22,147 nucleotides of DNA from a virus (Duplodnaviria > Heunggongvirae > Uroviricota > Caudoviricetes): the IMG/VR virus record IMGVR_UViG_3300025853_000050; one strand, written 5' to 3'. How positions within the stretch are numbered: position 1 is the first letter of the stretch; each line of letters opens with the position of its first letter. Below, piece after piece: positions 200-16,615 of the stretch. Under the pieces are notes generated by a model. The model made no database searches, was not told the origin of the DNA, and worked only from the letters and a program-made list of their open reading frames with translations. The translations under genes were made by a program, and so were the position numbers.

Positions 200-979
200 T
201 TAATAGGTAATACTACCATTGCCGGTGAATTTATAAATGTGCCATGATCCACTAGTGGTATATACCGGAGATCCAGTCGTTGATGCTGCTGCAATTAAAG
301 CTCTAACGATAACGACACCGGAACCACCGGAGCCACCATTATAACTAGACCCGGCGCCACCACCGCCACCGCCACCGAGGCCATTAGTACCAGAACTACC
401 GTTACCGCTACTTGTTGCAGAACCGTTACCGCCACCACCAGAACCACCGGAGCCACCATTTGCGCCGCCGCCGCCGCCAGCATATGTTATAGCCGAACCT
501 GTTATAGAACTAGATAATCCATTACCACCGTTAGAATTATTTGCATTTTGTCCTGCCGAACCGGCACCACCGCCGCCAGTACGATAATACGAATTGCCGC
601 CCCCGCCGTAATTACCTTGACCAGCGGTCGGTGTGCCGCCTGTTGGGCGGGAGTTACTCCCGCCGCCGGAACCTCCAGAACCACCATATTGGTATGTAGC
701 GTAAGCACCACGGCCACCACCAATAGCAGTGAATCCAAAAGCTTCGGAATTTCCGCCATTAGTACCAGAATATCCACCGACCCCACCAGCACCAACTGTT
801 ATACTATATGTGGTCTTTTTAAAGATTTCGAAATTTGTATCCTGTAGTAATCCGCCAGCGCCGCCGCCACAACCAACGTTACCGCTACCAGCGCCGCCGC
901 CAGCGACAAGTAAATAATCAATTAAAACTGGAGCAGGACCATAACTATTGCCAACAAACGCGGATAAAATACCAGTCAT
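200..979 (-). CDS. Glycine-rich tail-tip adhesin (gp38-like polyglycine-sandwich type)
   Basis: 259 aa with DYLLVAGGGAG, repeated GGxGG/GGGGAG runs, GGSGVVIVR and C-terminal HIYKFTGNGSITY, typical of phage glycine-rich-domain proteins. TAATG-coupled to the upstream gene. Confidence 0.8.
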   Translation of the reverse strand: MTGILSAFVGNSYGPAPVLIDYLLVAGGGAGSGNVGCGGGAGGLLQDTNFEIFKKTTYSITVGAGGVGGYSGTNGGNSEAFGFTAIGGGRGAYATYQYGGSGGSGGGSNSRPTGGTPTAGQGNYGGGGNSYYRTGGGGAGSAGQNANNSNGGNGLSSSITGSAITYAGGGGGANGGSGGSGGGGNGSATSSGNGSSGTNGLGGGGGGGAGSSYNGGSGGSGVVIVRALIAAASTTGSPVYTTSGSWHIYKFTGNGSITY

Positions 980-1578
980 TAGCTAATATTTCCTGATACA
1001 ATACAATACGTACTATTCGCAAAGAAAATATTTGCCAATCCGCGAGTGGCCAACGTTGCGGTATTACCAGCCTTTGCGGTATTATCTCCTGCAATATAAG
1101 CAGTTGTTGTCGATAATGTTATTGTGACATCTCCAGTTGTGTCATTAACCAATATAACCACATCACCATCACTAAATGTTGCGTCCGGAACAGTAATGCT
1201 ACCTCCTGAACCAATCATGATATGTTTACTTTTATCGGCAGTGGTTAACTGGTAAGAAGTTGTTTTGCTGGAACCTGAAATTGGGATATTTTTATATCCA
1301 ACACTAATTCCATTTGTCTGTAGATCGCCCGTAAAATCTGCCGTTGTATCTGCATATTTCGCAATCGTGGATGCAGTTTTTGATGCTGTTACGGCTCCAT
1401 TAGCAAGTTTTGCCTCAGTAACAGTTCCATCAGCTGGAGTTACGCTTGTGATAGATGCGCCGTTACCAGATAATGTCGTTGCACTAACAGATGCGGCACT
1501 AACAGATGTGGCATTAACACTATTATTAACAGTGATAGAATCTAATACATCGACTGTTGTTACTTCTAAGCTACTCAT
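979..1578 (-). CDS. Short fibre stalk with C-terminal adapter domain (199 aa; start revised from 1599 to 1578)
   Basis: The ATG at 1578 overlaps the upstream TAA (TAATG), as at five other junctions. Starts MSSLEVTT, has DGTVTEAKLA-NGAVTASKTA shaft repeats, and ends in a beta-rich domain GYKNIP...CIVSGNIS. Confidence 0.75.
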   Translation of the reverse strand: MSSLEVTTVDVLDSITVNNSVNATSVSAASVSATTLSGNGASITSVTPADGTVTEAKLANGAVTASKTASTIAKYADTTADFTGDLQTNGISVGYKNIPISGSSKTTSYQLTTADKSKHIMIGSGGSITVPDATFSDGDVVILVNDTTGDVTITLSTTTAYIAGDNTAKAGNTATLATRGLANIFFANSTYCIVSGNIS

Positions 1579-2114
1579 TATTCTACTTCCTCCGGCCAAT
1601 TATGGATAGTTGGGGGAGCCCCATCAACCGATTCGAACAGGGCCATAAATTCCTGTAAGTTCGCGGCACCGTTTATTGCTAATTCGATGTTTGTGCATGA
1701 TTGTAAAATTGCACTCCTATAATCTGAAATATATACAGGAATTTCCACAGCCCTGTCTAATTTCCTCAAAACATACCAATCAGTTTTTTCTAACATATCA
1801 TTGGCAGTTTTCTTGGTTTTCTTTATCCACTCACTTCTCAATCCTATGGATATAATTTGGTTTCCATCTAAATCCAGAATAGGATCTCCATTCTCATCGA
1901 CTTGTGCAACATCTTCCAGCAATTTGGGAACTCCAGCTGAATAATAGAATCGTTTATCAACTGGTGGTTCAACGGCAGGTTCAAACCAAACTAATCCCAT
2001 CCCGGTTTTATATGTGTATGACCAAATATTCCAATTAGAAGGGTGAGTAATCCCATTATCATCAGTCCAAGGTTTACCTGGTTTAATTATATTTCCGTTG
2101 TATTTCCAAGGCAT
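1578..2114 (-). CDS. Putative tail-fibre assembly chaperone/partner of the upstream lectin protein
   Basis: 178 aa, acidic. W..NGITHPSNW and KKTANDMLEKTDWYVLRK...YRSAI resemble the LL..TDW motif of phage tail-assembly chaperone-like proteins. GGAG RBS. Confidence 0.65.
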   Translation of the reverse strand: MPWKYNGNIIKPGKPWTDDNGITHPSNWNIWSYTYKTGMGLVWFEPAVEPPVDKRFYYSAGVPKLLEDVAQVDENGDPILDLDGNQIISIGLRSEWIKKTKKTANDMLEKTDWYVLRKLDRAVEIPVYISDYRSAILQSCTNIELAINGAANLQEFMALFESVDGAPPTIHNWPEEVE

Positions 2115-2116
2115 GT

Positions 2117-4606
2117 TTATACTCCTAAACTATATTTAAATGGGTGTTCGGCAAATGCCATGAAGAAGTAAGTATACGCCGCATTCATCCCGGTATTACT
2201 GCGAAACTTAAATCCGTTTGATAAAATATCAACATAGTCGGTTGTGTCCTCAACAGCAGTTGTTTCAGCACGAAATCTGTCGTTATCTGGGTTATATCCA
2301 TCTCTTTTATTGTCTACTATAGACCAACTACCAGCACCGCTTGCTGGTTTAGCCATAATCCAAGCAGGTCTAAATCCAGTGTAAACGAAAGTACCATCAG
2401 CAGAAGCATTACCAACATAAGACCCAAATTTGGAGAACCCTTCTTTTTCCGCAAATACCCAAGCAACATAATTATCACCATTGGCCCCTTGGCCTGACGC
2501 TGCATTGTGATCGAAAGTGGTTGATGTCAAAGCCCTAGAACTTGAACCAAAAGCATTTGTCAAATTAAGGTCGGCATAATCTGTTGAACCATCAACGGCG
2601 TTTGTGTAACTCCGCCAATTTGTAGTTGCCGTGGTTCTATTCTTAATTATTACAAATTTTGGCGTTACTCCAAGACCATGGGCAATGGTCTTTTCTGTGC
2701 CATCCCCAGTATATGTGTAAATTCCAATACCAGCTTCCGTGTTTACTGTTGCTCCCGTTGGATTTCGAGTACCACCATCAAGTCCTGCTGCACTGGCAGT
2801 GGCATATCCTATACCGTCAACATTAAACGTGTTACTAGAACCACCCAATTTCCAATTCCACGCAACATAACTTTCGCCAGAAGCATTGAAAGAGTCTTGT
2901 GTTCCTAATGTAAATCCATCAGCATCAAATGATTGCAAGTATGTAGAATCAACAGATTCTCCCCAATCACCATTGGTAGACAAAGACCTAGTAGCCCCTC
3001 GAACAGTATCAGTTAAACGATGATATCTAGTGTTAGGTCCACGAGCCTTAATCCAAGTAAAATCAGGAGAGAAACCAACGCCAGTGATTGCATGAGCATC
3101 TGTTCCGTTTCCGTCATACAGGACAGAATTAAATGCGTCTAACGGGGATGCGCCTTGCGCTGGATCGAAAGTTGGTGCTGGTAGATTGGCTGAACAAAGA
3201 GCCTTAAAACCAGCTGGAGGCGTATAGAAAAATGATCCATAACCATTTTCATCCGGTGCTCCAACATAGTTGGCATAGTCTGTTAGTGAAGTATAAACAC
3301 CATCAAACGTACTATCCTGACCAAAGTTTAAATACCCATTTCCAGTGTAATATGTACCAAGTGCCGGTGACCATTCCTTATCCAAAGCACTACCAGAAAC
3401 TGCAACACCCTGACTGACTCCATTGACATAAAACGTGAGAGTTTTTGTTGCGGAATCTAAATCAAGAGCAACACCTATAACGGAAGCATTATTATATCTA
3501 CTACCATAAGAAGAACTGCTGTTGTTATTCCAAAGAGACCCAGTAGTTCCATTATCAAAGTATCCATAACTCGTTGCACTATATCCAGGGAACTTATTTG
3601 AATAGAAATTGGCCTGTAATTCATCAGTGGTTACAATACCAGGCATCGCATATGTCGAAGTAAAGGTAAGGTTGAACAATGCATATTCCCAATACCACTT
3701 ACCTGAAGAAACCGCAAACGTACTTGACCCCGATCTCCATTGTCCAGAAGTTGAATGTTGTTGTCTTAGATTGCCGGCGAGTAGGGCATTTACAGATTTT
3801 AAAGGATTTAATGTGGCGAAATTGTTAGTCGGACTATCAGGTACTTGATCGCTAGTCGCGATACCACTTGGAGTAAAATTATTTGAACCGGCTGCATCAT
3901 AGCCTAGTGTAGTCGCGCTTGTACCGTCTGCGAAGTCTAGATAATGGCCATTGTTACCATAAGATCCCGCATATGTTTTTGCTATCCATACACCATTTTT
4001 AAATTCACCAAACGAAGTATGATCCAATGCATAACCATCAATTAAATACGTTTCGGTGATATACCCATCAAAAGCATCGGCTGGAGGGTTGTTCCAATAA
4101 CTCCCTAGATAGTGCGAAGCAGTAGTGTTTATTGGGGTAGTCGTAAAAGTGCCACTATAGCTGGTTGCCTGTTGAATTCCATTCACATAAATCTTTGTCT
4201 TGCTACCATCAGCTAAACTACCGTCAACGGAGACCACAATGTGATACCAGCCAGCCGCATCCCGAAACATGGCGGTAGTCTTGTAATAGTATATTGCCCC
4301 ATTGTTTCCATAAAATGTAATGGTATCGTAACCATATGTGGCGTTATACGAAAAGAAAATGTCTGTTCTATTGGTACTTCCAGTGCTAGCACAGAACAAC
4401 CACTGAAAATCCGAAAGTTTAGGGTCGCATTTTTTTACCCATCCACTCCAGGTCCACTTTTGATTGTTACCCACAACACCAGTTCTAGATAGATAGGAAG
4501 TGGAACCATCAAATCTTAAAGAATTATCAATAGTTTTTGAGTAAAATCCGGACGAACTGGAAGATGTCGAAGCCATCCATTGTGAAGTACCAAAAGGACC
4601 ACTCAT
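2117..4606 (-). CDS. Multi-domain lectin-type adhesin (LamG/ConA-like + SPRY-like + DUF7483-like repeats)
   Basis: 829 aa. NSLRFDGSTSYL..WTWSGWVK..WYHIVVSVD (LamG/ConA); SGKWYWE..VIGVALDLD..LTFYVNG (SPRY); LYDGNG/YTYTGDG..IAHGLG..FVIIKNR/FSKFGSYVGN..YTGFRPAWIM repeats. Strong AAGGAG RBS. Confidence 0.85.
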   Translation of the reverse strand: MSGPFGTSQWMASTSSSSSGFYSKTIDNSLRFDGSTSYLSRTGVVGNNQKWTWSGWVKKCDPKLSDFQWLFCASTGSTNRTDIFFSYNATYGYDTITFYGNNGAIYYYKTTAMFRDAAGWYHIVVSVDGSLADGSKTKIYVNGIQQATSYSGTFTTTPINTTASHYLGSYWNNPPADAFDGYITETYLIDGYALDHTSFGEFKNGVWIAKTYAGSYGNNGHYLDFADGTSATTLGYDAAGSNNFTPSGIATSDQVPDSPTNNFATLNPLKSVNALLAGNLRQQHSTSGQWRSGSSTFAVSSGKWYWEYALFNLTFTSTYAMPGIVTTDELQANFYSNKFPGYSATSYGYFDNGTTGSLWNNNSSSSYGSRYNNASVIGVALDLDSATKTLTFYVNGVSQGVAVSGSALDKEWSPALGTYYTGNGYLNFGQDSTFDGVYTSLTDYANYVGAPDENGYGSFFYTPPAGFKALCSANLPAPTFDPAQGASPLDAFNSVLYDGNGTDAHAITGVGFSPDFTWIKARGPNTRYHRLTDTVRGATRSLSTNGDWGESVDSTYLQSFDADGFTLGTQDSFNASGESYVAWNWKLGGSSNTFNVDGIGYATASAAGLDGGTRNPTGATVNTEAGIGIYTYTGDGTEKTIAHGLGVTPKFVIIKNRTTATTNWRSYTNAVDGSTDYADLNLTNAFGSSSRALTSTTFDHNAASGQGANGDNYVAWVFAEKEGFSKFGSYVGNASADGTFVYTGFRPAWIMAKPASGAGSWSIVDNKRDGYNPDNDRFRAETTAVEDTTDYVDILSNGFKFRSNTGMNAAYTYFFMAFAEHPFKYSLGV

Positions 4607-4618
4607 TTTATATCTCCT

Positions 4619-5341
4619 TTATGAGTATGCCAGATAAGGTGTACCCAATAAAATTCTACCAGAAGCAATAACTTTATATGGAACCAAATCAGTTGTGGAT
4701 GCAGCAGTTGATAGGGTAATACCGGTATTACCTGGCGTTTCATAATCCGTGCCAAGTGAAACTGTTCTACTTCCCGTGGCATCTTGAATGAATACAATCA
4801 CACCAGATTGACCAACTTGTTCAGTTGTTGGATTGACCAATGTTACGTTTCCAGTCAACGTAAGTTTAAAATCTTGATATGATGAAAAATCTAATGTAGT
4901 GTTGCCAGATACGGTTGTATTTGCATACATTGCCGCAATTGCAGTATCGACGGATATTGATGCAACAGTTATATTTGCGGTACTTGCTATTTTTGCTGCC
5001 GTTACTGCGCCATCTGCGATCTTTGCTTGTGTTACTGCGCTATCGACTATTTTTCCAGTTGATATAGTGTTGTCTTGCACAGTGTGAAGTCCTAGTGCTT
5101 TGCCTTGATAGACAACATAAATCGAATCAGAACTCTGAACTGCACTAGTAAACACTATGGAGGTATCTGATGCAGTATATGCAACACTTGGTTCTTGTCT
5201 TACGTTATTTACAAATACTTCAATATCGTTTGAACCAACAACTGGATTGGTTAGAGTATACGAAGTACCACCATCACCAGTTATGGTCTGTTTTGATAAA
5301 GTATGAAAAGTATTGTCTGGTGTGTATCCTAAAAATGGCAT
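4619..5341 (-). CDS. Fibre arm: MPFLG-type N-terminal anchor domain + decapeptide shaft + C-terminal adapter domain
   Basis: 240 aa. N-terminal ~80 aa is paralogous to the 284-aa protein (DG.TSY.L..V.VN.V.Q.P..F..A). Three D.AVT.AKIA repeats. C-terminal LTLTGNVTL.NPT..GQSGVIVFIQDATGSRT domain, common in phage fibres. Confidence 0.75.
   Translation of the reverse strand: MPFLGYTPDNTFHTLSKQTITGDGGTSYTLTNPVVGSNDIEVFVNNVRQEPSVAYTASDTSIVFTSAVQSSDSIYVVYQGKALGLHTVQDNTISTGKIVDSAVTQAKIADGAVTAAKIASTANITVASISVDTAIAAMYANTTVSGNTTLDFSSYQDFKLTLTGNVTLVNPTTEQVGQSGVIVFIQDATGSRTVSLGTDYETPGNTGITLSTAASTTDLVPYKVIASGRILLGTPYLAYS
4985..5074 (-). repeat. Three tandem 10-codon repeats (DNTISTGKIV/DSAVTQAKIA/DGAVTAAKIA)
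   Basis: 30-bp period visible in DNA (gttactgcgc at 5001 and 5031). The same decapeptide occurs at 5863..5919 and 1372..1431. Confidence 0.8.
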
Positions 5342-5346
5342 ACTTA

Positions 5347-6201
5347 TTATCCTATTAAATATCCGCCAAAATATGCAATATGTATGTCTGTGTCACTATT
5401 ATTTGCATCCTTAAATGTGCCCCTAACTGTGTCATTGGCTGATAGCTGTATAGTCGCCATTGCGATAGCAGAACCGTAAGTAGTTGGTACGTAGTTTAGA
5501 GCTTGTGATATTAAAGTTGCATTTTTATATAATTTAACATAACCACTGCTAGTGCCAATGCCATTTCTTGTAACATCTACATACATAAGATATAAACCAT
5601 CTATGGGCGCAGTGAATAGCAAAGTAGTGTTGCTAAAATGATTTCCGTTATTTAGATGTATGGTCCTTGTACCAGACACTGCATCAACTTCGGCATTTAC
5701 TCCTACTGCATATGAACCGGCATAAACATGAAATGCTGGGGTATATGGTTTTGTAATATATCCATTGGAATCAATCACCAAAGAAGTATTACTAGCATTA
5801 TCATCAATGCCAGTGGTTGCAAAATTTGATATAGTCTTTCCAGACAAATCTAATGTAGAATTTAATTTATCTGCTGTAACTGCACCACTGGCAATCTTAG
5901 TAGTTGTGACCGACCCATCAGTAGGGACTGTGGCATTTCCAACTTCACCCATTCCAATCACAAAATCAATCACATCCGCCCCTGTAACTGCTTCTGAGAA
6001 TGTTATTGTCGATCCGTCAATACTGAATGATGATCCTGGTGCCTGTACTACACCATTAACAGATACCATCAATCGTTCGGCTTGACCTGGATAAAATGGC
6101 GCCGAATTATATAAAAGTGAATATGAGGTATTACCATCAGGTGTGATGGTATCTAAACTTTTAAATACACCTGATAATGGTTGTTGACCTATAAATGGCA
6201 T
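5347..6201 (-). CDS. Fibre arm with MPFIG-type anchor domain and C-terminal C1q-like head
   Basis: 284 aa. C1q signature NNGNHF...FTAPIDGLY...IQLSANDTV...FGGYLIG. N-terminal domain paralogous to the 240-aa protein. Confidence 0.85.
   Translation of the reverse strand: MPFIGQQPLSGVFKSLDTITPDGNTSYSLLYNSAPFYPGQAERLMVSVNGVVQAPGSSFSIDGSTITFSEAVTGADVIDFVIGMGEVGNATVPTDGSVTTTKIASGAVTADKLNSTLDLSGKTISNFATTGIDDNASNTSLVIDSNGYITKPYTPAFHVYAGSYAVGVNAEVDAVSGTRTIHLNNGNHFSNTTLLFTAPIDGLYLMYVDVTRNGIGTSSGYVKLYKNATLISQALNYVPTTYGSAIAMATIQLSANDTVRGTFKDANNSDTDIHIAYFGGYLIG
5768..5855. repeat. 88-bp direct repeat, copy A
   Basis: 82/88 identical to 6929..7016; encodes LDLSGKTISNFATTGIDDNASNTSLVIDS. Confidence 0.95.
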
Positions 6202-6204
6202 AGT

Positions 6205-6471
6205 TTATACCGGTGTTTCTATTTCTGCATTTACCTGAGCTGATGTTTTGACCCATCCTCTCGCAAATGCATCGGCAACAATTTCTTCTCTAGTTGTGGG
6301 TATTTGAACACCTTCATCGAGTGCTTTTGAAGTATATAATTGCACTATTTCATCAATTGCAATTCTTGCTCGGTTCTTTACAGCATTATCCGACCAATCT
6401 TCTGGTGATAATGCTGCATATTCCATCGCACTATATTCTGTGTCTGTGATTTCAATTGTAATTGTTGTCAT
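6205..6471 (-). CDS. Small acidic partner protein of a C1q fibre (chaperone or tip cap, function unknown)
   Basis: 88 aa with AAGGA RBS. MTTITIEITDTE..MEYAA.SPEDW.DNAVKNRARIAIDEI resembles small proteins I recall adjacent to C1q fibre genes in marine phages. Confidence 0.65.
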   Translation of the reverse strand: MTTITIEITDTEYSAMEYAALSPEDWSDNAVKNRARIAIDEIVQLYTSKALDEGVQIPTTREEIVADAFARGWVKTSAQVNAEIETPV

Positions 6472-6498
6472 TGTTTATTTCCTTTTGAATTTATTGGG

Positions 6499-7056
6499 TT
6501 AGCCGACTAGGAAGCCACTAAACGATGATTGAGAATCTATACTCCAAGCGTCGTCAGAATGTGACATGGCTCTAACATCCATAGTATCATTTGCGTACAT
6601 ATAGATTGTCCAACTACTTTGAACGGAATCGTAACTACCACTTTCTTGGTTAATCCAGTATAAACCAGGTACTAAAGTGCTGTTGTAGTACGGTCTAATA
6701 AGATGATATGTACCTGCAATTTCATCCCAACGTAGATTAGTGTTGAACTGATATACACCATTAACAGGCGCAGTGAAAACACCAGTAGAAGGATTAAGAC
6801 ATCCTCCTATATTATGGTAAACAACAGAGTCAAAAGACACTCGGTTATATGTTACAGTATTGTTGAATGCTTGATCTGCCGCTGACGCAAGAAAGCTAGG
6901 TTGATACGGCATAGTGACATACCCGTTAGAATCAATCATCAAAGAAGTACTACTAGCATTATCATCAATACCAGTAGTCGCAAAATTTGTTATAGTCTTT
7001 CCAGACAAATCTAATGATGTATCTAAACTATCTGATAATATTTTAGAAATCGTCAT
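6499..7056 (-). CDS. Short fibre with C-terminal C1q-like head
   Basis: 185 aa. PSFLA..VSFD..NIGG..NPSTGVFTAPVNGVYQF..ANDTMDV..FSGFLVG is a canonical C1q pattern. TAATG-coupled to the upstream gene. Confidence 0.9.
   Translation of the reverse strand: MTISKILSDSLDTSLDLSGKTITNFATTGIDDNASSTSLMIDSNGYVTMPYQPSFLASAADQAFNNTVTYNRVSFDSVVYHNIGGCLNPSTGVFTAPVNGVYQFNTNLRWDEIAGTYHLIRPYYNSTLVPGLYWINQESGSYDSVQSSWTIYMYANDTMDVRAMSHSDDAWSIDSQSSFSGFLVG
6929..7016. repeat. 88-bp direct repeat, copy B
   Basis: 82/88 identical to 5768..5855; offset 1161 nt, which is a multiple of 3. Confidence 0.95.
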
Positions 7057-7382
7057 TATGTTTTCTCCATCACACCTAGTACAACATCAATAGATGAATT
7101 TGCACCAGCCTTAACATTAAGAGAATCTAAACTTTCTAGAATATATTTCTGACCAGCAAGTGTTTCTAATGTAGTATGTGCTGGAATTTCAACAGCATCT
7201 AACAATTGAAATGTAGCTGCAGCCGAATTATCTTCAAACTGTACAGTAGCGCTAACAACGTTGTCTGTCTTATTAGCAATTGCTAATCCAAGTATAACAA
7301 CTTCACTTGATATAGGAGCCGCATAAAGTTCTTGATATGTAGTTGTTGCTTCTATTGACGAATTTTTAAAACTATTAGCCAT
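7056..7382 (-). CDS. Conserved MAN(S/T)FK-type small beta-sandwich phage structural protein
   Basis: 108 aa: MANSFKN..LY.AP....VILGLAIAN....VEIPA..TLE..GQKYILE..DSL.V...SIDVVLGVME. Family recognised from memory as following genes that end in ALAIALG. Confidence 0.75.
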   Translation of the reverse strand: MANSFKNSSIEATTTYQELYAAPISSEVVILGLAIANKTDNVVSATVQFEDNSAAATFQLLDAVEIPAHTTLETLAGQKYILESLDSLNVKAGANSSIDVVLGVMEKT

Positions 7383-7385
7383 TTT

Positions 7386-7553
7386 TTACCCCAATGCTAT
7401 TGATAATGCTGTTGCTTCGTCCGCAACTTGGGTTGTAGTTGCAACGCTAACGCTATTAATTGTAATATTTGAGCTAACAGCGACGCTATTAGATATCATA
7501 ATTTCAGCGTTGACAGTTTGTATGCTTAAATTAGTTACCTGTAAAGTGCTCAT
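7386..7553 (-). CDS. Unannotated 55-aa mini fibre/linker protein ending ADEATALSIALG
   Basis: Below the ORF-track cutoff. Translation MSTLQVTNLSIQTVNAEIMISNSVAVSSNITINSVSVATTTQVADEATALSIALG*. It fills the 7383-7582 gap, has its own leader motif, and stops 3 nt before the MANSFK gene. Confidence 0.85.
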   Translation of the reverse strand: MSTLQVTNLSIQTVNAEIMISNSVAVSSNITINSVSVATTTQVADEATALSIALG

Positions 7554-7567
7554 GGTTCCCTTTCCCC
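7551..7567 (-). promoter_or_regulatory. Conserved leader/RBS motif GGGGAAAGGGAACC-ATG (copy 2)
   Basis: 16/17 identical to 160..176. Confidence 0.7.
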
Positions 7568-7582
7568 TTAGACTTGTTTTTA

Positions 7583-7915
7583 TTATTTAGTTATTTCTGG
7601 GGTTAAGGTGATTATACCTTCCCGAATTCTTGTTATATTATCGGAGCCATCATTAATTTCAACATCATACAAATAACGCCTAGCTTCTATTGGAGAAGTT
7701 TGAGCCGGAGTTGTGGATATAGTAACATACCCGCCAGTATCAACTGCTGTCGTGAAGGATAAAGTCACGGTATTGGAAGTAAACTCTCTGCGCATTTGAG
7801 AATTTGCTGTATATCCAGACAAATTCATAAGATCGCCATTTGAATCTTTTACCGAAAATGTTTTTGAATATGTGGTTCCCTGAGGAATTACTAGATCTTC
7901 TTTAATAACTGACAT
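7583..7915 (-). CDS. Ig-like beta-sandwich virion protein (BppU/LtfC-like)
   Basis: 110 aa: L.I.QGTTY..TF.V.D.NG...NLSGYTA.SQMRR...RYLYDVEI....TRI.EG.ITLTPEITK, a pattern common downstream of VrlC-like genes in T4-like phages. Confidence 0.75.
   Translation of the reverse strand: MSVIKEDLVIPQGTTYSKTFSVKDSNGDLMNLSGYTANSQMRREFTSNTVTLSFTTAVDTGGYVTISTTPAQTSPIEARRYLYDVEINDGSDNITRIREGIITLTPEITK
7584..7591 (-). promoter_or_regulatory. Candidate late promoter ACTAAATA overlapping the upstream stop codon
   Basis: Variant of the T4 late box (TAAATA core intact), 31 nt before the ATG at 7553; same spacing as the TATAAATA at 192..199. Confidence 0.55.
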
Positions 7916-8514
7916 TATTCCATATTAACCCTTGAGAATGAAACCGTGGAACCTGTTGTGGATGGGGTGACTGAAAGAACAACATTGGCCCCAGAAATAC
8001 TACCAGAAAATACGCCAAGGACAGTATTTGAAGTCACAATACCATATTCTGTGGCAAAGGCTTGGCCAGATACCGAACTGTTCCCAGTGTGAACTACCAA
8101 AACTTTTGAAAGTTGATAACCATTTGCTGTAGTATCTGTAATATGTAATAGATATTCGGCAGCTTTATATGTGGATGCGTCAAATTGATCAACGGTCTGG
8201 AGAGATGTTCCATTAGTAATTACCGTTCCAGTATCAAATGCAGATACCTCCGACCATTGACCATTTGCATTTAGATAATGTTTAGTGGAAGCCGCCTGTA
8301 CCGTATTTGGTTGGATGATCTCAATATTTTCAGTAGAATTGCCAACTAAAACAGTATTGGACCAAAATTGACCGCTAATCGCAGCATTACCAACAGCTGT
8401 ATTTGAATCAGTGGTAACTGTATAAGTTGACATGGCATTAGCCACATCATTTACTCTATTAATTAAATACTCGAACGTATTTGTGTTTGAAACTTGAGCT
8501 ACTGTAATTGTCAT
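7915..8514 (-). CDS. Virion structural/short fibre protein with conserved C-terminal beta domain
   Basis: 199 aa. N-terminal V..TNTFE..INRVN anchor-like motif; C-terminal VDQF....YKAAEYL.HI....YQ.SKVLVVH....TEYG...LG.FS..ISG.NV.L.VTP domain. Confidence 0.7.
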   Translation of the reverse strand: MTITVAQVSNTNTFEYLINRVNDVANAMSTYTVTTDSNTAVGNAAISGQFWSNTVLVGNSTENIEIIQPNTVQAASTKHYLNANGQWSEVSAFDTGTVITNGTSLQTVDQFDASTYKAAEYLLHITDTTANGYQLSKVLVVHTGNSSVSGQAFATEYGIVTSNTVLGVFSGSISGANVVLSVTPSTTGSTVSFSRVNME

Positions 8515-8728: not shown

Positions 8729-11700
8729 TTAAACCTGCAATGCAATCACTCTTAAATCAGCAACCCTTGGCGGAATAGCAGAATCAGTTCCAGCCAATCC
8801 AATTTTTACCTGGAATTGTTTAAACCCATTATATACTTCACCGCCTAGTGTATGCGCTTCAGGTTCGGCGTCTGTTCTAAAATCAGTAATATCAATTGTA
8901 GAACCTACATAAGAAGCTTTCAGAGTAACAGCCGTACTATTAACAGTATCCACATAATAAGCAGTATTCGCTTCTAGAGGCGTCAATGGAGTACCACCAT
9001 CTGGGACCATATAATAAACTTGTTGGTTTGCAGTAAAAATAGTATTCGCGTCTGTGATAAAAATAGCATTATTTACAACATCAAACCCAGTTGTATTTGC
9101 GACAATAGGCGTGGCGTTTCTTACATATTGGAACACTCCATTAGAATTTTTATATTCGTCAGGAATATCACACACATATTCAATAAAGTCATAATCATTG
9201 GCAGTAGAAGAATACACATTTGATCTTGGTGTTAATTCTATCCAATTTTGGAGATCAAGTAATTCATTATCTTCTTCTGTTCTAAATCTACCCCAAACTT
9301 TAACATCACTATTTACTGGCTTGTACCCTGAGTAACTTACATATAAATCTTCGGCGTCTTGACCATCAGCCAAAGTAACAGGAAGCGAAATATATCTATT
9401 TAACAGGCTGCCACCAGAAGGTTCTGTTTCGCCAGTAAAGTCATTATTCAAAAGGTTATGAACAAACACGCCCTGCGAACGGTTGATATTTAATACAGGC
9501 GAAACATATTCAGATTCAGTAATAAGTATAACATTAGTATTCAAAGAATAATTGTTACTACTACCAAATCTAGAAAGTTCGTCAGAATATGATAATAACT
9601 CGCATTCTTTTCTATAATTATAATTCTCATTAGGAATAATAGAAGAATAATCAGAGAAAGTATTAGAAGTATATAAAACTTTAGATCCAAACAAAGCAAA
9701 TGTTTTTTCAAAGGTTAAATGATAAGCATTTAAATTTTGCACAGAATATTTATACGTATCATAAGATGCAATTGTATTAGTATTATTGGAAGAAATTCCG
9801 CGAATTACTGTATTAGGTTTAAACAATCCGTTCGTATGGTCAATGATCATAAAATTATTAGTAGAATCATATTTTCTGACAACACCAATACCATATTCAA
9901 TTAGATTAATACTACCAGTAATTGATTTGTCAGTAGAACCCGAATCAGAAATAGTATATGTTTCATTTAATTCAAAACCAACATTATCAGTGTAGTATTT
10001 TGAACTAATAATTTGAGTGACATTAGCAGTAACGCCTGAAGTTGTGCCTGTAATAATATCTCCTACAACAATATTATTAGAGCCAAATGTTACTTCAGAA
10101 AGAGACAAAAACTCATCTGTTTTGACTAATTCACCGCTTTGGAAAGTATTAGCTGAATCAGAAAGGTTTAGCATTTCAACACGACTATTGCCGATATTTA
10201 CATTAGCCTCTCCGACAGTAAAACTTGCTCTGTTAAATACAACTTTAAGGTCAACATCTGGTACCATATCCCAGTTTCTGTTATTATTCGTAGTAAACAA
10301 ATTACCATTTAATTTTCTTGTAGTATATTGTTTACCAGTTATAATATCAGTTTCGCCCAATCTAGCGATCCAAGAATAATAATTTGGATTTACACCTTCT
10401 GTATGGATAAGAAAGGCATATTCCTGATCATTCATCAAAAATACTGGTGATGGGAAAGTTACTCTAAATTTGTTATCTTCTTCTGTATTTAGATCACCAT
10501 CCCACAAAGGAACATCTTCAGATTTGTACCAAACTTCAGAACCTGGAACTTGAGTGCCAGAAATTTGACCTGAAGAATCCATCGTTCTGATTTCAAACCA
10601 AATACCAAGCGTTGGGTCTTTGGCTTGCAACCATATATCAGTAGAAGTTAAGAAGATACCATCTTCTCCAGCAGGAGCTTCTATTTTGAAAGAATACGCT
10701 AAGCAAGATTCAGGCCACCTATCGGGGGCGTTTGCGCGGCGCTGTTCCGCAGGGCTGAGTCGTCTATCCTCAGCAGACGTGCTTCTTGGTGGCGGGTAAA
10801 CGATTCTTCTTCTAACAGTATCAGATCCAAAACTACGCGAAACTCCATAATTTTTTTGATACAATGGCTTATCTTGCACAATTGCAATTGTTGTAGAAAG
10901 AATTGTATTTTGTTTTGGTGCAGTAAGTCCATTTGCAACAAAATAACTTACAGAATAAGAAGATGAATCGTCGGTCGAATTCGTAGGCGAATCAGTGATG
11001 ACAATTTCTTTTGTACCTGTTCTGAACCTTTTACCAGTTTCTGGCAATCGTAAATAAGCTACTAATGTTCCATTTTCGTCGGAGCGCAGTTCCGAACCTT
11101 CAGATTTTAACAAAATAGTTGAAGGGTCAATTATTTCATTAAGAGTACCTGGTCTAACTGGATCGATCACGTAAGGATTAAGTGGTCGTTGACTTTGAAG
11201 ATTGTATGTGCCTTCATATAATCTTATTGGCGGGTAAACACAAATAACAGGATCTACGCCAGCGCCGCCTGGACCAGAATTTTCATAATCTACGGGTGTA
11301 GTGTATTCATTCATGTCTTCATTATCAAAGAAAACATAAAATCTGGTATTAGGCTTAAGATGTTCTGCAAGAATTTTAATTGTCTGTGGCCTGATATAAG
11401 TTTTAATATCTACATCGGTTACAAATTCTCCAAGCTCCTCAGAAACTTTAGTATTTGTAATTGTAGTTTTTGTACCAGAACGGTCGTTATAATAATTTTC
11501 TCTCAACTCATAAGTTTGTTTCGCGCCTGAGCTCCAAACAGTTTTTGGTTTAAAATATTTGTTTGCTTGCGCTCTTGTTGCAACATTATAAACATTTCTA
11601 TTACCATTGGCGGAAGTTACAATTACAGTATATCCTGTAACATTTTTTCTCCAAGAATCCCAGACAGTTGAAGAAGTAGATCCTAATGTTTTTGATGGGT

Positions 11701-14700
11701 CTGAAATATCAATTACTTTATCTACTGTGCTTGTATCGACCCAATTATCTGTACTTGGTTCTAACTTTGTAACACCGACAAATCTATAAGAAGATTTTTC
11801 AATATTTCTTGTAGTTGTAACATTTTTAATCTCCATTAATTTCTTTTCAGAATATGGGAGAGTAATAATATCGCCAGTAACTTGATAATTTGAAGAAGTT
11901 TCTTCGTCTAATTCATATTTAAATGCTTCAGTTTCGAAAAATGGTCTAATAGAACCTTCTTCTGTATCAACACTAATTCTATAATCAATATTATCTGTGT
12001 CGCCTAGAGCATGAGAAGAAAAGTTATCTACAAAGAAACCATTTTTAAAACGGTCTAAACCATTTTCGTCAATAATTTTTAAGTCTAATGCACTTTTTTC
12101 TAACAGATTCAATGCGTTATAATATTCTAAATTATTAACTTTTTGGTTAATAACACCAATTTCTTTCATAGTAAATCGTTTAGGAGCTACTTTTTCTGTT
12201 ATAACTGAAGCGCCTGTTTGACCAATATTTCTGGCCAATGTTTCAGAAATTGATGGATAAGGAGGAATATAGACTTTTGAGAGAGTCATAGAATTGCCAG
12301 TTTTTACTGGACTTACTGGATCTTCCGCAGGAGTACCAGTAATTGAAGAGATAAGCCCTTCTCTATTGATAGTAATTAAATCTCTTCTAGCCAGGTAATA
12401 AGAATAATCAACATTAATATCGCTATCAATTGAAGCAATTCTTAAACCATTTGTATCAGTTCTGAAATTATCTGTAATCGCAGGATTGACTGTGGCGCTA
12501 CCAACTGTTACAGATGATACCGCTGTATTAGATTTATATGGCCTATAGTCTAATACATTTCTTAAATCATAATTACCATACTTAGGAATTTCGTATGTGA
12601 AAATAGTAGTATTTGAAGATGCTGTATCATCTACCGGATACGAATCAACAGAAAAATAACCATAGCCGCTAGAAAAATCTGGTTCAAAATGCTCCAACTC
12701 TACCAATAAATGTTTATTAGTAAGATCTAAACTACCAGTATGAATGATTGAACCATGGTCGTAGAAATTATTTTTCTGTCCATTATTATAATTAAATGAT
12801 GATGTTACATCTGTACCTTGCGACGCAGTAGTAAAATCACTAGTGTCCATTCTTACAGAGACTACATTAAATACATCAGGGATACCTAAATTATAAGGAC
12901 CGACTGAATTTGCTACGTTATTTGATGTATTAATTTTTACATATCTTGCAGATCTTAATTTTTTCTTAACTTCTGCTGCAACATTTCTAATTACTCTATA
13001 TGTCACCTGAGTATCGATACTACCGATTGTGCCAGTACTATATTCTTTTAGATCAATAATTAAAGAGCCAGAAGAAACATTTGCAGTTCTTGTAACGCCA
13101 GAAGAACCATTGGCAGTTAAGTCAAGAATATCGCCTGTTCTGATAGCTTTAGAAAAAGTATTACCAGTTAATGTACTTTCGGCCAAATTACTTTTTAACG
13201 TAAGAGAAGTACTGTTTGTTACAGCATTAATGTAATATTGTGAACCACTTCCTTCAAATACTAATCTAGTACCTGGTATTAATTTATCAAAATTAGTCGC
13301 AGTTCCTGTAACAATATTATTTCCATTGTCAACTGCCACAGTACCTTCAAGAACAAAATCGACATCTTGAGAAGCCGAAACAATTAATTCTCTTTTTTCT
13401 GCAGCAGATAAATTTCCTGACGAATAAGATAAAGATTCACCAGAAGTAGAAACAGTCGTTGACAATGATTCCGCTGCATCTAGATTAGCAGATAACGTTT
13501 CTGATCTATTAAAGCTAAAAGTAGTGCCAACAGCTCCAGTATTACTTCTTACTGTTCTTACATAATCTTTACCAATTGGGAACAATAATGTATTAGTATT
13601 TGTTTCTTTAATAACAGCTTTGCCGTCTGACAATACAATATCTGCAAAGAAATAATTTGGAGAAGTTGTATACGCAATGGATTTCGCTTCTGATAAAGTT
13701 CTACCAGCGTTCATTTTGTGGTCAAATAGATATGCGCGCATCTGCGCAGACGGTTGACCTAATGTACCAGATTGGTATACTAAAGATTTTAATTTAGCTG
13801 TACCAATTTTATTTCCAGTAGGAGATACTGAGCCTTTTACGTCATTTGTTACTCTTGTTTCTGCTGCATCATAAAGGTCTACTGTGATAGCTTTATCGTG
13901 CTGCAGCGAACCTACAATTTCTTTAATGAAAAAATAGCCACCAGATCTAGCATTTACCAATTGATTATCAACATATTTAAAATTGGTTGATTTTGGAACA
14001 ATAACATGAGTAGTGGTTAATTTATTAATTTCATAACCTTTGACGAAGGCTAAACCTGGGAGAACATCTACAGATAAAAATTCAGAATTCCCGCCTTGAG
14101 CAGTAGTTAATAACCCTTCATTTTCTCCTGTATCTAGATATTCTCTTGTTCTTAAATCAAACCCTTTAACATAATAATCACCAGATTCGTCATAGGTTCT
14201 TTTAGCTAATTCGTCATAAATTCTTGAATATTCTGTTCTTTCTTTTCTAAGGGTAATTGCGCCATTGTCCATAGAAAACAAAGGAATAAATGTTTCTTCG
14301 TCAAAATCTCCATCTAGAACGATTTTAGACAACCCTGTTTCAATAGCGTATCTATGCGCACCCGGCGCATTTTCGTTTGGTGAACCAAGCGCATTATCCA
14401 AAAGAGTAACGTCAGTTAAGTCGGTAACAAAATTTTCAGACGTTTCAAGGCCAATAGTGACAGAAGGGGTGGTTGAATACTTATCTAAGATAATAGAATC
14501 TTTCGAAAATGCGACAAACATTCCTTTTGAGAAAATAACGCCTTCTTCAATACTAAATACACTACCAAATCCAGAAGCGCTAGTTGGAGCTACAGTAAAG
14601 TTTAATGTTTCGCTGCCAACCAAAGAAACAATTTCATTTTCAAGAAATACATTTGAAGTTTCCGAACCTCTTGTGTATCGAATCATAAAAACATATGTTG

Positions 14701-15043
14701 AATCATCTTCGTCATATTCGACAGCTTTAACATAAGCTCTCAATCCGGAAGTTTGTCCTTCAAATATTTGACCAACAAAATCATCTAATTTTTTGTTAGG
14801 AAACTCAACAGAAGAAGCTTTGATATAAGGAACATCCAATTCAATATCAAACCCGCCGCCTAAAACGATTGTACCTTCTTTGAAAACATGGGAACCAAAA
14901 CGCTCAATCTGCTTTTGTAAAATTGATTGCATTTGGTTAAGTTCTCTTGCTTGCACCGCAACAGAAGGTCTAAACAAAATTTTATGATATCCTTTATCAG
15001 GATCATAATCATCAAAGTATGGTGGGATATTAAAATTTGCCAT
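8729..15043 (-). CDS. VrlC-like / DUF4815 large virion structural (baseplate-peripheral) protein
   Basis: 2104 aa. N-terminal PYFDDYD..KGYHKILFRP..AVQARELNQMQSILQ.QIERFGSH.FKEG; ELAKRTYDESGDY; LDRFKNGFFVDNF; C-terminal FQVKI...PPRVADLR.IAL. Confidence 0.9.
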   Translation of the reverse strand: MANFNIPPYFDDYDPDKGYHKILFRPSVAVQARELNQMQSILQKQIERFGSHVFKEGTIVLGGGFDIELDVPYIKASSVEFPNKKLDDFVGQIFEGQTSGLRAYVKAVEYDEDDSTYVFMIRYTRGSETSNVFLENEIVSLVGSETLNFTVAPTSASGFGSVFSIEEGVIFSKGMFVAFSKDSIILDKYSTTPSVTIGLETSENFVTDLTDVTLLDNALGSPNENAPGAHRYAIETGLSKIVLDGDFDEETFIPLFSMDNGAITLRKERTEYSRIYDELAKRTYDESGDYYVKGFDLRTREYLDTGENEGLLTTAQGGNSEFLSVDVLPGLAFVKGYEINKLTTTHVIVPKSTNFKYVDNQLVNARSGGYFFIKEIVGSLQHDKAITVDLYDAAETRVTNDVKGSVSPTGNKIGTAKLKSLVYQSGTLGQPSAQMRAYLFDHKMNAGRTLSEAKSIAYTTSPNYFFADIVLSDGKAVIKETNTNTLLFPIGKDYVRTVRSNTGAVGTTFSFNRSETLSANLDAAESLSTTVSTSGESLSYSSGNLSAAEKRELIVSASQDVDFVLEGTVAVDNGNNIVTGTATNFDKLIPGTRLVFEGSGSQYYINAVTNSTSLTLKSNLAESTLTGNTFSKAIRTGDILDLTANGSSGVTRTANVSSGSLIIDLKEYSTGTIGSIDTQVTYRVIRNVAAEVKKKLRSARYVKINTSNNVANSVGPYNLGIPDVFNVVSVRMDTSDFTTASQGTDVTSSFNYNNGQKNNFYDHGSIIHTGSLDLTNKHLLVELEHFEPDFSSGYGYFSVDSYPVDDTASSNTTIFTYEIPKYGNYDLRNVLDYRPYKSNTAVSSVTVGSATVNPAITDNFRTDTNGLRIASIDSDINVDYSYYLARRDLITINREGLISSITGTPAEDPVSPVKTGNSMTLSKVYIPPYPSISETLARNIGQTGASVITEKVAPKRFTMKEIGVINQKVNNLEYYNALNLLEKSALDLKIIDENGLDRFKNGFFVDNFSSHALGDTDNIDYRISVDTEEGSIRPFFETEAFKYELDEETSSNYQVTGDIITLPYSEKKLMEIKNVTTTRNIEKSSYRFVGVTKLEPSTDNWVDTSTVDKVIDISDPSKTLGSTSSTVWDSWRKNVTGYTVIVTSANGNRNVYNVATRAQANKYFKPKTVWSSGAKQTYELRENYYNDRSGTKTTITNTKVSEELGEFVTDVDIKTYIRPQTIKILAEHLKPNTRFYVFFDNEDMNEYTTPVDYENSGPGGAGVDPVICVYPPIRLYEGTYNLQSQRPLNPYVIDPVRPGTLNEIIDPSTILLKSEGSELRSDENGTLVAYLRLPETGKRFRTGTKEIVITDSPTNSTDDSSSYSVSYFVANGLTAPKQNTILSTTIAIVQDKPLYQKNYGVSRSFGSDTVRRRIVYPPPRSTSAEDRRLSPAEQRRANAPDRWPESCLAYSFKIEAPAGEDGIFLTSTDIWLQAKDPTLGIWFEIRTMDSSGQISGTQVPGSEVWYKSEDVPLWDGDLNTEEDNKFRVTFPSPVFLMNDQEYAFLIHTEGVNPNYYSWIARLGETDIITGKQYTTRKLNGNLFTTNNNRNWDMVPDVDLKVVFNRASFTVGEANVNIGNSRVEMLNLSDSANTFQSGELVKTDEFLSLSEVTFGSNNIVVGDIITGTTSGVTANVTQIISSKYYTDNVGFELNETYTISDSGSTDKSITGSINLIEYGIGVVRKYDSTNNFMIIDHTNGLFKPNTVIRGISSNNTNTIASYDTYKYSVQNLNAYHLTFEKTFALFGSKVLYTSNTFSDYSSIIPNENYNYRKECELLSYSDELSRFGSSNNYSLNTNVILITESEYVSPVLNINRSQGVFVHNLLNNDFTGETEPSGGSLLNRYISLPVTLADGQDAEDLYVSYSGYKPVNSDVKVWGRFRTEEDNELLDLQNWIELTPRSNVYSSTANDYDFIEYVCDIPDEYKNSNGVFQYVRNATPIVANTTGFDVVNNAIFITDANTIFTANQQVYYMVPDGGTPLTPLEANTAYYVDTVNSTAVTLKASYVGSTIDITDFRTDAEPEAHTLGGEVYNGFKQFQVKIGLAGTDSAIPPRVADLRVIALQV

Positions 15044-15052
15044 TATTTTACC

Positions 15053-16615
15053 TTAAATTTCGATAGTCAACTTAAAAGTTTCAGTTTGATCGTCTTTACG
15101 ATTTATGTTATTTATATTATCGACGTACATTGGTTGTAGTTCTTTGGTGTATATATCACCAACTGTAGAGATATTTATAGTAGTGACATTGTATCCACCA
15201 GTATTTGCCAGGTATTCTCCATTAACAAAAGTCTTATCACCAGATAAGTGAACAACACTGGAATTTGAAAATACAACTGTGGCCAATGAATTACTTGTTG
15301 CACCAGTTACAATATCACCTGCAGTAAAAGTATAAGCTGGCGAAACGGAAGCCTTTAATAAATTATTAAAAGAACGTTCATAAAATCTATCTCCAGGGGT
15401 GACTGTTCCCAGGGCAGTATTTGATACTGCATATTTTGGATTTTTAACAATACCAATTTTATTATACAAAGTATTTGCTGTTGGGATAATGTCAAGTTCG
15501 GTGTTCGCGAATGTAATATTAAATGCTATACCTTGCATATTTAATTCAATCGCTGGATCATAACCATGACCACCCGGAGGAGGAACAATGGCATAAACAT
15601 TAGCACCAGAACCATATTGTGATTGAATTTCAACATTAGCCCAGGAAATATTTGAACCCGAATCAAGCAATACAATTTCGCTAATCTTGGTAGTGTAATC
15701 ATTCACCAAACAATAAGCCGAAGGATTAGAGTCGCCATCAGTATTAAATACAACAGCAGGGCTGATCAAATATTCTGTAATACCTGGTGTGATTTTTGAA
15801 ATATCCATTGCGGTATTTACGTAAACAAATCTACCAGTGGCATTAACAACATAATCCGTGATTAAACGAAGTTGTGATGTGCTTTCAATTGTATTGTACA
15901 CATAAATTGCATTATTGACATAAAAGTTATCAGAGGACGAAGCATCATTTTGAATCTGAATAACAGTGGTATTTTGTACAGATGATACGATACCATTAGT
16001 TGACGATGTATATCCATTACCGCTGTTAGAAATAACAACCACATCAACGCCTGAATATTCAGCAGCAGTTGCCACGATAGAGGCATTGGAATTGATTGGA
16101 GCATAATCATCAGATTCGAATTTATCATAATTCAAAGATGAAACTGATGTGAGGTATTTCCACTTATATCCATCACTTGTCTCGAAGGTTGCCTTTTGTG
16201 TTGGTAGCCCGATCAAAGATGGATTGGAAGTAGAAACTGCTCCATTAGAATTGTCAATACATTTATAAACGTGGTATTGACCACCATCAATTAATGGGTC
16301 GCAAATAACATAAAAGTTATTGTTCGCTTCCAGCGTATTCGAAGTGCTGTCATATTTTTCGTATACAGTTCCTGTTGTCCATATGTTTTTCTTCACAACC
16401 GGAGAAATATCACCAGGTTGTACTTTTTTGCCAAAAAGCATATACCAATTTTGTTCAAAATTAGTCTCGTATGCATTATTTGCAACCTGAGGAACAGAAC
16501 TAGGATATTCAATCGGATGCGACCCATAAGCATAATACGCCGATGTATTACTTTGAATATTATCAAAGATTTCTTCGTATAATGCTTTTTTATACGCTGG
16601 AAGGATTTTACCCAT
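15053..16615 (-). CDS. gp8: Baseplate wedge subunit gp8-like
   Basis: 520 aa. YHVYKCIDNSNGAVST..P and FETSDGYKWKYL motifs, PPPGGHG.DP..EL, C-terminal Y.DN...I.R..DQTE.FKL.IE. Confidence 0.85.
   Translation of the reverse strand: MGKILPAYKKALYEEIFDNIQSNTSAYYAYGSHPIEYPSSVPQVANNAYETNFEQNWYMLFGKKVQPGDISPVVKKNIWTTGTVYEKYDSTSNTLEANNNFYVICDPLIDGGQYHVYKCIDNSNGAVSTSNPSLIGLPTQKATFETSDGYKWKYLTSVSSLNYDKFESDDYAPINSNASIVATAAEYSGVDVVVISNSGNGYTSSTNGIVSSVQNTTVIQIQNDASSSDNFYVNNAIYVYNTIESTSQLRLITDYVVNATGRFVYVNTAMDISKITPGITEYLISPAVVFNTDGDSNPSAYCLVNDYTTKISEIVLLDSGSNISWANVEIQSQYGSGANVYAIVPPPGGHGYDPAIELNMQGIAFNITFANTELDIIPTANTLYNKIGIVKNPKYAVSNTALGTVTPGDRFYERSFNNLLKASVSPAYTFTAGDIVTGATSNSLATVVFSNSSVVHLSGDKTFVNGEYLANTGGYNVTTINISTVGDIYTKELQPMYVDNINNINRKDDQTETFKLTIEI

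Follow-up and report, generated by a model that had tools for sequence, protein, structure and literature searches.

How a phage tail comes to carry several receptor-binding proteins of different folds is the question raised by a ten-gene block at positions 200–7553 of IMGVR_UViG_3300025853_000050, a 22,147-nt stretch (the window) that is a fragment of an uncultured T4-like phage and whose minus strand carries every gene, including all those described below. The ten genes are co-directional, lie downstream of the baseplate wedge genes and of a giant DUF4815/VrlC protein, and form the start, or proximal part, of the host-recognition (tail-fibre) cluster of a marine T4-like myophage whose closest cultured relative, Methylophilales phage Melnitz, has an identical wedge-to-neck layout. 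All ten open reading frames (ORFs) listed in an initial annotation of the sequence were confirmed together with their motifs, and Pfam recognised among their products two C1q domains, a SPRY domain combined with DUF7483, and a Gly_rich_2 domain. We consider it probable that the block specifies several short receptor-binding fibres whose parts, each with a gene of its own, are joined at two recurrent junctions, termed J1 and J2, each of which is visible as a gene order conserved in other phages.

The first junction, J1, is an order in which a protein ending in an ...ALAIALG-type tail is followed by a ~108-aa MANxFK protein and then, usually, by a fibre starting with MP(F/Y)(I/L)G. In the window, the tail belongs to a 55-aa 'linker' (7386–7553) that begins with MSTLQVT and ends in the hydrophobic sequence ...EATALSIALG, and the 108-aa MANSFK protein (7056–7382) is the proposed connector. 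The fibres with an MPFIG or MPFLG start are those of 284 aa (5347–6201) and 240 aa (4619–5341), which lie beyond a 185-aa C1q fibre (6499–7056). Melnitz contains two MANxFK paralogues, both preceded by a protein ending in ..AIGVALG or ..ALAIALG and followed by MP(F/Y)(I/L)G-type domain proteins, and its homologue of the 108-aa protein is 63% identical. Across 80 close IMG/VR loci, which form one clade, the product upstream of MANxFK ended in ..ALG in 86 of 91 cases and the next gene had an MP[FY][IL]G start in 65; viewed from the other side, a MANxFK-type start followed 116 of the 124 ALG-ending ORFs in all fetched loci, a sample biased towards such loci. The initial annotation had named gene-order conservation beforehand as a check on its proposal, and the tail/MANxFK/MPFxG order proved to be conserved far beyond the window phage, extending to podophage HTVC010P (gp23/gp24/gp27), the unusual myophage S-TIM5 (gp131/gp130/gp129) and Bordetella phage PHB04 (gp124/123/121). 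Among distant representatives, surveyed by IMG/VR scans, the tail, the MANxFK N-terminus and the downstream N-terminus changed together from subfamily to subfamily, as in ..ATAMAIVFGG followed by MANTFKSA.. and M..KY[IL]GKN.., or ..PRAIVMGV followed by MAETFKN.. and MAKYGYTG...

A further locus with this order is that of the T4-like cyanophage S-SCSM1, in which the family member SSCSM1_27 (profile E 1e-19) sits between a 1478-aa 'long tail fiber protein' ending in ..PFILALGGN and a 711-aa 'tail fiber protein'. The database record of S-SCSM1, the virion proteome of which has been measured (PMC9602691), labels all three products as virion proteins. A gene position between proximal and distal fibre genes was found in the window, S-SCSM1, S-TIM5 and HTVC010P. 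The tail-bearing upstream proteins ranged in size from 55 aa in the window through ~60–80 aa and ~200 aa (the latter with two XD domains) up to a 1478-aa fibre (about 1500 aa), and the 55-aa ORF is therefore a recognisable minimal member of this class rather than noise.

The MANSFK protein had no match in Pfam or NCBIfam, and its PHROG matches were confined to two families of unknown function, phrog_26609 and phrog_1276. Neither the protein nor its 125-member profile found a sequence relative in the PDB; matches to the MS2 coat protein were at chance level and were rejected as homology. The family is large among viruses, comprising 374 clusters at 50% identity (E ≤ 0.001). An AlphaFold2 monomer model based on 125 sequences, with a predicted local distance difference test score (pLDDT) of 92.5, showed a compact jelly roll of 8–9 strands, whose look-alikes in BFVD are named 'virion (structural) protein'. 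The fold neighbours of the model were generic small oligomeric jelly rolls with top Z scores of ~9–10, including the KHP40 cement trimer (7dou_4, Z 9.7), 7eel_H (Z 7.5), an Ena spore-appendage subunit, nucleoplasmin cores, the turret domains of HFTV1 and STIV, and TNF/C1q (Z ~7), and on its modelled fold alone MANSFK is probably an oligomer. In the databases and literature searched, neither this family nor its hydrophobic-tail partner appears to have been described. The suggestion in the initial annotation that the ALAIALG/MANxFK/MPFIG genes form an undescribed module seems to stand for the first two components, but not for the third, the fold of which is known.

A separate observation on connectors comes from another locus (L120, 4188–5488; also L118), which encodes a 117-aa protein. 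By eye, the C-terminal sequence of this protein, ..LEEGDSLRL..SYEEIS, looks like the MANxFK consensus, and the very next gene specifies a stand-alone Gly-rich head of 315 aa. If the likeness holds, connectors might also precede heads that have no XD anchor.

The known fold at J1 is that of the distal partner. The AlphaFold2 monomer model of the 240-aa protein contained two confident domains joined by a low-confidence shaft, and its MPFLG domain (residues 14–82; 14–80 in the model comparison) superposed on XD2 of the CBA120 tailspike TSP4 (7rfv_A, residues 187–250) with a Z score of 10.1, a root-mean-square deviation of 1.4 Å over 63 aa and 18% identity, and on XD3 of the same tailspike (7rej_A, residues 265–335) with a Z score of 8.4. 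The domain also superposed on the N-terminal anchors of podophage fibres, namely those of LME-1, Carin-1, P-SCSP1u and T7 gp17. In profile searches, the MPFLG family matched residues 133–186 of a K1-specific depolymerase (9k4a_A, E 1.2e-4) and gave no direct match to TSP4 or gp10. XD2 and XD3 are modules of the T4 gp10 type that mediate binding between trimers: they join gp10 to gp12 and gp11, and the CBA120 tailspikes to one another (PMC8825819). As modelled, the MPFIG/MPFLG domain would be a known fibre-anchor or protein-docking fold tied to these attachment modules, in agreement with the anchor role assigned to it at first. The claimed difference from the T4 gp9–12 system is weakened, since the anchor has a T4 gp10-like XD2/XD3 fold that is also used in the branched complexes of CBA120 and G7C.

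The fibres of the block share these parts among themselves, as the initial annotation had recognised. The 240- and 284-aa proteins are 30% identical over residues 1–196 (E 7e-15), covering anchor and shaft, which in the 284-aa fibre is built of decapeptides. The 284-aa fibre, which matched the tail-fibre family phrog_18673 (E 4e-23), is in turn 38% identical over residues 108–284 to residues 6–185 of the 185-aa fibre (E 3e-35), covering the shaft end and the C1q head. Both heads exceeded the Pfam cut-off of 23.7 bits for C1q (PF00386), with 44.7 bits for the 185-aa and 30.2 bits for the 284-aa protein, and gave weak PDB matches to C1q-like protein 3. In relatives, some proteins have nothing but XD domains, two or three of them, as with the products of Melnitz genes 170 and 173.

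The 185-aa protein, composed of an N-terminal motif (MTISKIL), a shaft segment and the C1q head, need not be anchor-less: its N-terminal motif M-x-[IL]-[ST]-[KR]-[IL] is common to other fibre proteins. This second class of fibre N-terminus (MTISKIL, MALSKIQ, MSLIKIN, MPISRIK, MAITRLN) occurs on Melnitz genes 177, 181 and 183 and in three other loci (L082, L042 and L011), on fibres with different heads, and may be another docking peptide. In four metagenomic proteins (P0272, P0335, P0366 and P0372), an anchor more than 80% identical to that of the 240-aa stalk is joined to a C-terminal module ending in ..GGTLRII in place of PF26209, the C-terminal domain of that stalk, an instance of head or socket swapping on one anchor. 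Within the C1q genes, a 131-nt in-frame direct repeat (5743–5873 and 6904–7034; 84% identity, offset 1161 nt) lies at the shaft-to-head boundary of both, and because its flanks have diverged, it is likely a site of recombination or gene conversion between the paralogues.

The second junction, J2, starts at the other end of the 240-aa stalk. Residues 134–238 form a β-sandwich whose best fold match was the C-terminal domain of the Pa223 capsid spike (9ny6_C, Z 8.6). This domain belongs to PF26209 (Phage_phiTE_241_C, 'putative phage tail fibre C-terminal domain'), a family absent from the local Pfam copy and assigned here from the precomputed Pfam 38 annotation of an identical protein (P0270) and its relatives; Atlas clusters of the domain carry the same family name. 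In the loci examined, PF26209 was always located at the extreme C-terminus of fibre proteins. The adapter-like stalk end of the initial annotation is thus a recurrent C-terminal domain, albeit one that Pfam 38 already lists. Downstream of the stalk lie an 829-aa distal module (2117–4606), consisting of an N-terminal peptide (..FGTSQW..), a LamG-like region, SPRY (37.6 bits) and DUF7483 (301.8 bits), and a 178-aa protein (1578–2114), the third member of the J2 cassette. The 829-aa protein matched phrog_19943 (E 1e-162). DUF7483, unmentioned in the initial annotation, is its largest and best-conserved part; across 829-like proteins, conservation is higher in the first ten residues (..FGS(S/Q)QW..) than in the LamG loops.

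The same three genes recur in phages with different stalks. Over its last 95 aa, the 240-aa protein shares 77% identity with the end of a 'fiber protein' (CRP811_33) of the Roseobacter podophage CRP-811, and the next two CRP-811 genes encode homologues of the 829-aa (39%) and 178-aa (44%, CRP811_31) proteins. In 32 IMG/VR loci, the N-terminal parts of the PF26209 carriers (136–976 aa) were unrelated; 829-like genes were always located directly downstream of the carrier, and wherever the contig continued, the 829-like and then the 178-like gene came next, so that the succession proposed for the stalk's 'adapter' domain was found in nearly every locus long enough to show it. Unrelated N-terminal parts combined with constant 829- and 178-like neighbours point to an exchange boundary inside the stalk gene, just before the putative socket domain. 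Podophage SS120-1 has the order too, and so does siphophage PSS2, whose gp072 precedes gp073, a 1626-aa Laminin_G_3+DUF7483 'virion structural protein'; J2 is thus represented in myo-, podo- and siphophages. This PF26209–LamG/SPRY/DUF7483–178-like gene order appears to be undescribed in the databases and literature searched.

The initial annotation assigned no function to the 178-aa protein, nor to an 88-aa product of the block. The 178-aa protein, which follows the 829-like genes in the IMG/VR loci and has a further homologue in MEP301 gp15 (32%), had no match in Pfam, PHROG or NCBIfam. Its nearest named Atlas cluster, PF16778 (score 0.90, 162 shared features), is a lead only, and on this weak lead the protein is probably a fibre-assembly chaperone or helper. 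None of the profile searches with the 178-aa protein bore out the 'N-acetylmuramidase/lysin' annotation of its homologue CRP811_31.

A second stalk-plus-head pair may follow the same plan. The 199-aa stalk (979–1578) has a 55-aa-like N-terminus (MSSLEVT), shaft repeats and a C-terminal domain. Over shaft and C-terminal domain it is a paralogue of the 240-aa protein (residues 50–178 against 100–217 of the latter, 30%, E 4e-10), and its N-terminus shows weak similarity to the 55-aa protein (E 0.003). A further locus (L068) has a 137-aa protein with the start MSSIEVEN.. and a PF26209 end, which precedes an 829-like gene. The next gene of the block (200–979) encodes a 259-aa protein with Gly_rich_2 (85.4 bits) as its sole Pfam match, preceded by ~20 aa. 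It is 40% identical to the C-terminal part of the product of Melnitz gene 175, where it is fused to an MPYLG anchor. Gly_rich_2 heads are mostly fused to their own anchor and shaft in relatives, which fits the 199- and 259-aa products jointly acting as one fibre. Searching for relatives of these two proteins and their gene neighbours gave matches only to shaft repeats or to a 38-aa end, with low-complexity filtering interfering, and was unsuccessful; the argument for this pair therefore comes down to paralogy.

Taking these observations together, we propose the following assembly. At J1, the proximal protein, here of 55 aa, would present its C-terminal hydrophobic tail (...ALSIALG) to the MANSFK jelly roll, probably an oligomer, which would be the connector where tail and distal fibre meet; the 284- and 240-aa fibres would dock there by their N-terminal XD2/XD3-type β-jellyroll domains, and the 185-aa C1q protein by its short N-terminal motif instead. 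At J2, the PF26209-type C-terminal domain of the stalk, in the 240-aa protein and as a paralogue in the 199-aa protein, would hold a distal module that has its own gene. On the former stalk this would be the 829-aa LamG/SPRY/DUF7483 protein, attached by its conserved N-terminal peptide, and on the latter the 259-aa Gly-rich head, with the 178-aa protein probably serving as assembly chaperone. We infer every physical contact in this scheme, the oligomeric states and the position of each fibre on the baseplate from gene order, domain identity, the folds of two proteins and the conservation of both orders in other phages. The plug-and-socket idea of the initial annotation gains from the conserved gene neighbourhood at the two junctions, although such a neighbourhood is no proof of it.

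The proposed logic is reminiscent of T4 gp34–gp35–gp36/37 and gp37–gp38, executed mostly with other parts. Phage fibres that are branched or composed of several proteins were known before, as were XD domains, PF26209 and heads of the C1q, LamG/SPRY and Gly-rich kinds. In the T4 long tail fibre, gp34, gp35, gp36 and gp37 make up the proximal half, the hinge protein and the distal half; as in the block, these are products of consecutive genes with a small protein encoded between proximal and distal fibre genes, and in S-SCSM1 the MANxFK family member is encoded exactly between a 'long tail fiber protein' and a 'tail fiber protein'. By contrast, no Pfam or PHROG match links the 108-aa protein to the gp35 family, gp35 is about three times larger, the proximal partner in the block can shrink to 55 aa, and the distal partner would dock by an XD-type domain.

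With the branched complexes of CBA120 (TSP1–4) and G7C (gp66/gp63.1), the block shares the XD2/XD3 β-jellyroll fold and the presence of several receptor-binding proteins of different folds, and relatives of the block also carry tandem XD domains. However, the heads of CBA120 and G7C are depolymerase β-helices, whereas those of the block are lectin-type (C1q, LamG/SPRY, Gly-rich); the XD domain of the block forms the very N-terminus of short fibres; and the jelly-roll connector and C-terminal hydrophobic tail are additional parts not reported for those phages. Separately encoded tips or partners are familiar from the gp37–gp38 tip adhesin of the T2/S16 type and from the fibre and Tfa chaperone pairs of lambda, Mu and P2. 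As at J2, the last stalk domain in these systems travels with the next one or two genes while the stalk N-terminus is exchanged, and as in gp37–gp38, the distal recognition module of the block is separately encoded, with the Gly-rich head following the second stalk. The components differ: the first distal module at J2 is an 800–1600-aa LamG/SPRY/DUF7483 protein, the stalk domain is PF26209, and Pfam places the 259-aa protein in Gly_rich_2 and not in the gp38 family.

Several points weigh against the two-junction proposal. Linked genes share ancestry, and conserved order with co-varying termini could reflect cassette inheritance and not contact; the 80 close IMG/VR loci, moreover, cannot be counted as independent. 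With Z scores under 10, the structural matches of MANSFK are generic, capsid cement proteins being among them, and the fold alone indicates no fibre role. The 'virion protein' label of SSCSM1_27 could not be traced to the proteome table in the supplement of the S-SCSM1 paper. The tail motif occurs without the connector in Melnitz, where the 71-aa product of gene 188, which immediately precedes the neck gene, ends in ..TFAIALG and no MANxFK gene comes next; T4 fibritin (wac) occupies the matching genome position, and after gene 188 the ALG tail motif may have another partner. At J2, the gene after the PF26209 carrier in S-CBP2 and in Caulobacter phage S2B had no Pfam match and no BLAST match to the window proteins, and so cannot be recognised as 829-like. 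In the second pair, the C-terminal domain of the 199-aa stalk is only a distant paralogue that a PF26209-type profile did not recover, and the searches for relatives of that pair found no second locus with a 199-like stalk and a Gly-rich head.

A rival reading takes the block as an ordinary mosaic cluster, in which co-inherited cassettes of independent fibres and chaperones each sit separately on the baseplate; the boundary motifs would then be recombination linkers or assembly signals, and MANSFK would either help fibres to assemble, as a chaperone, or decorate the capsid or tail. PMC7029224 describes the region as a hypervariable island, the 131-nt repeat in the C1q genes and the alternative C-termini found on a shared MPFLGYTPDNTF N-terminus in metagenomic relatives show module shuffling, and trimeric cement proteins (7dou_4 and 7eel_H) are among the closest structural matches of MANSFK. 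A fibre C-terminus swapped together with its chaperone would also produce linkage like that at J2. However, the conservation is seen at the protein level, at the extreme termini and across phages without DNA similarity, and MANxFK genes never adjoined capsid genes in the loci examined, with family members annotated as virion proteins. The 829-like proteins, moreover, are large and lectin-type, have no anchor of their own and include a homologue in PSS2 annotated as a virion structural protein; they must therefore attach to something, and PF26209 is their most constant neighbour. We regard the mosaic reading, the decoration or chaperone role of MANSFK included, as unlikely. Were the genes only linked cassettes, the block would be an ordinary mosaic fibre cluster.

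Another reading, the one put forward in the initial annotation, goes beyond a serial joint and makes one MANSFK oligomer the hub for the 185-, 284- and 240-aa arms, giving a multi-headed adhesin at each baseplate vertex. Gene counts speak for such a branched tree, with a single MANSFK gene for three fibres encoded directly downstream, two of them of the MPF(I/L)G type, and with more XD-anchored fibres than MANxFK genes in Melnitz; XD2/XD3 domains build branched complexes in CBA120 and G7C, and the XD-only proteins of Melnitz look like branch platforms. Yet a serial chain would account for the data just as well. The arrangement in S-SCSM1, in S-TIM5 and in several podophage-like loci is that of a linear joint, with one proximal protein, one connector and one distal fibre, and extra fibres could attach at other baseplate sites, for example through the gp9/10-like proteins encoded at 16618–17391 and 7915–8514. 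For these reasons we doubt that the tree is branched. Fusion of the 240- and 829-aa or of the 199- and 259-aa products by read-through or frameshifting was rejected, because the 829-aa gene has its own AGGAGA Shine–Dalgarno site and ATG after the TAA stop and because PF26209-type domains end proteins in all relatives.

Under the two-junction reading, a wider generalisation can be entertained as a possibility, short of an expectation. The hydrophobic tail, the MANxFK jelly roll and the XD domain might constitute a widespread, unrecognised universal fibre joint, functionally the counterpart of the T4 gp35 knee, in myo- and podophages of SAR11, OM43, cyanobacteria and some terrestrial hosts, and in combination with the PF26209 socket might allow plug-in exchange of receptor-binding modules. 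Few viruses on Earth are as abundant as pelagiphages and cyanophages, and how their fibres assemble and how they change hosts is largely obscure; in PMC7029224, most tail-fibre genes could not be identified. If both junctions are real, fibre architecture and receptor-binding modules would become readable from metagenomic sequence by means of the tail motif, the 108-aa family and the two docking domains, and structural biologists would be offered a compact set of complexes.

The surroundings of the block are in keeping with its placement in the host-recognition cluster. In transcription order, gp25 (21651–22103), gp6 (19813–21651) and a gp7-like wedge protein (17402–19813) are followed by a 257-aa gp9/10-N-like protein (16618–17391), a further wedge protein (15053–16615) and a 2104-aa DUF4815 protein (8729–15043; VrlC in the marine-phage literature), then by three small genes and the ten-gene block. 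The available part of PMC7029224 describes the stretch from VrlC to gp14 (neck) as the hypervariable 'host recognition cluster' of pelagimyophages and cyanomyophages, which has the same genomic position and the same hypervariable character as the block; that part mentions an island and lectin-type domains and makes no mention of the tail/MANxFK/XD and PF26209/LamG/178 orders. At the nucleotide level, the block had no match among 50,697 phage records.

The initial annotation had the block bounded on both sides by a promoter/leader unit, of which the leader half holds. A 17-nt leader, GGGGAnAGGGAACC+ATG, is present twice (160–176 and 7551–7567), each copy ending on ATG; the copy preceding the 55-aa gene, the leader or ribosome-binding unit GGGGAaAGGGAACC+ATG at 7551–7567, matches that at 160–176 in 16 of 17 bases. 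The canonical T4-type late box, however, is exact only at the downstream copy, where TATAAATA (192–199) and the leader together occupy 160–199 and precede the gene at 1–162, whereas the upstream copy reads ACTAAATA. A scan for sigma-70 promoters and terminators performed no better than on shuffled sequence. Within the block, the 240- and 829-aa genes (4606–4621) are in the same reading frame with TAA and four codons between them, and the 55- and 108-aa genes (7382–7388) are in the same frame with a stop and one codon between them; both pairs are read as separate genes in which each downstream gene has its own start. The start of the 259-aa gene overlaps the stop of the 199-aa gene (TAATG).

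Four smaller genes in or beside the block deserve mention. Between the two C1q genes, an 88-aa acidic protein (6205–6471) matched no family in Pfam, PHROG or NCBIfam, and its position prompts the guess that it is a fibre-assembly helper. Just upstream of the block, a 199-aa protein at 7915–8514 is a paralogue of the 257-aa gp9/10-N-like protein (26% over 226 aa, E 1e-6) and could possibly provide a second fibre socket on the baseplate. Its neighbour, a 110-aa protein at 7583–7915, matched phrog_1084 and phrog_3304 ('L-shaped tail fiber protein assembly'); its Melnitz homologue, gene 184, is annotated 'tail fiber'. At the opposite end, the next fibre gene (1–162) runs off the window edge; it begins with MSDKDFVVKNGLQVE.., similar to the start of S-TIM5 gp131 (..FHIKHGLTVGS..) and also to the N-terminus of T4 gp34 (..EDGLDAGG..), and this start may be the baseplate-attachment peptide of a further fibre.

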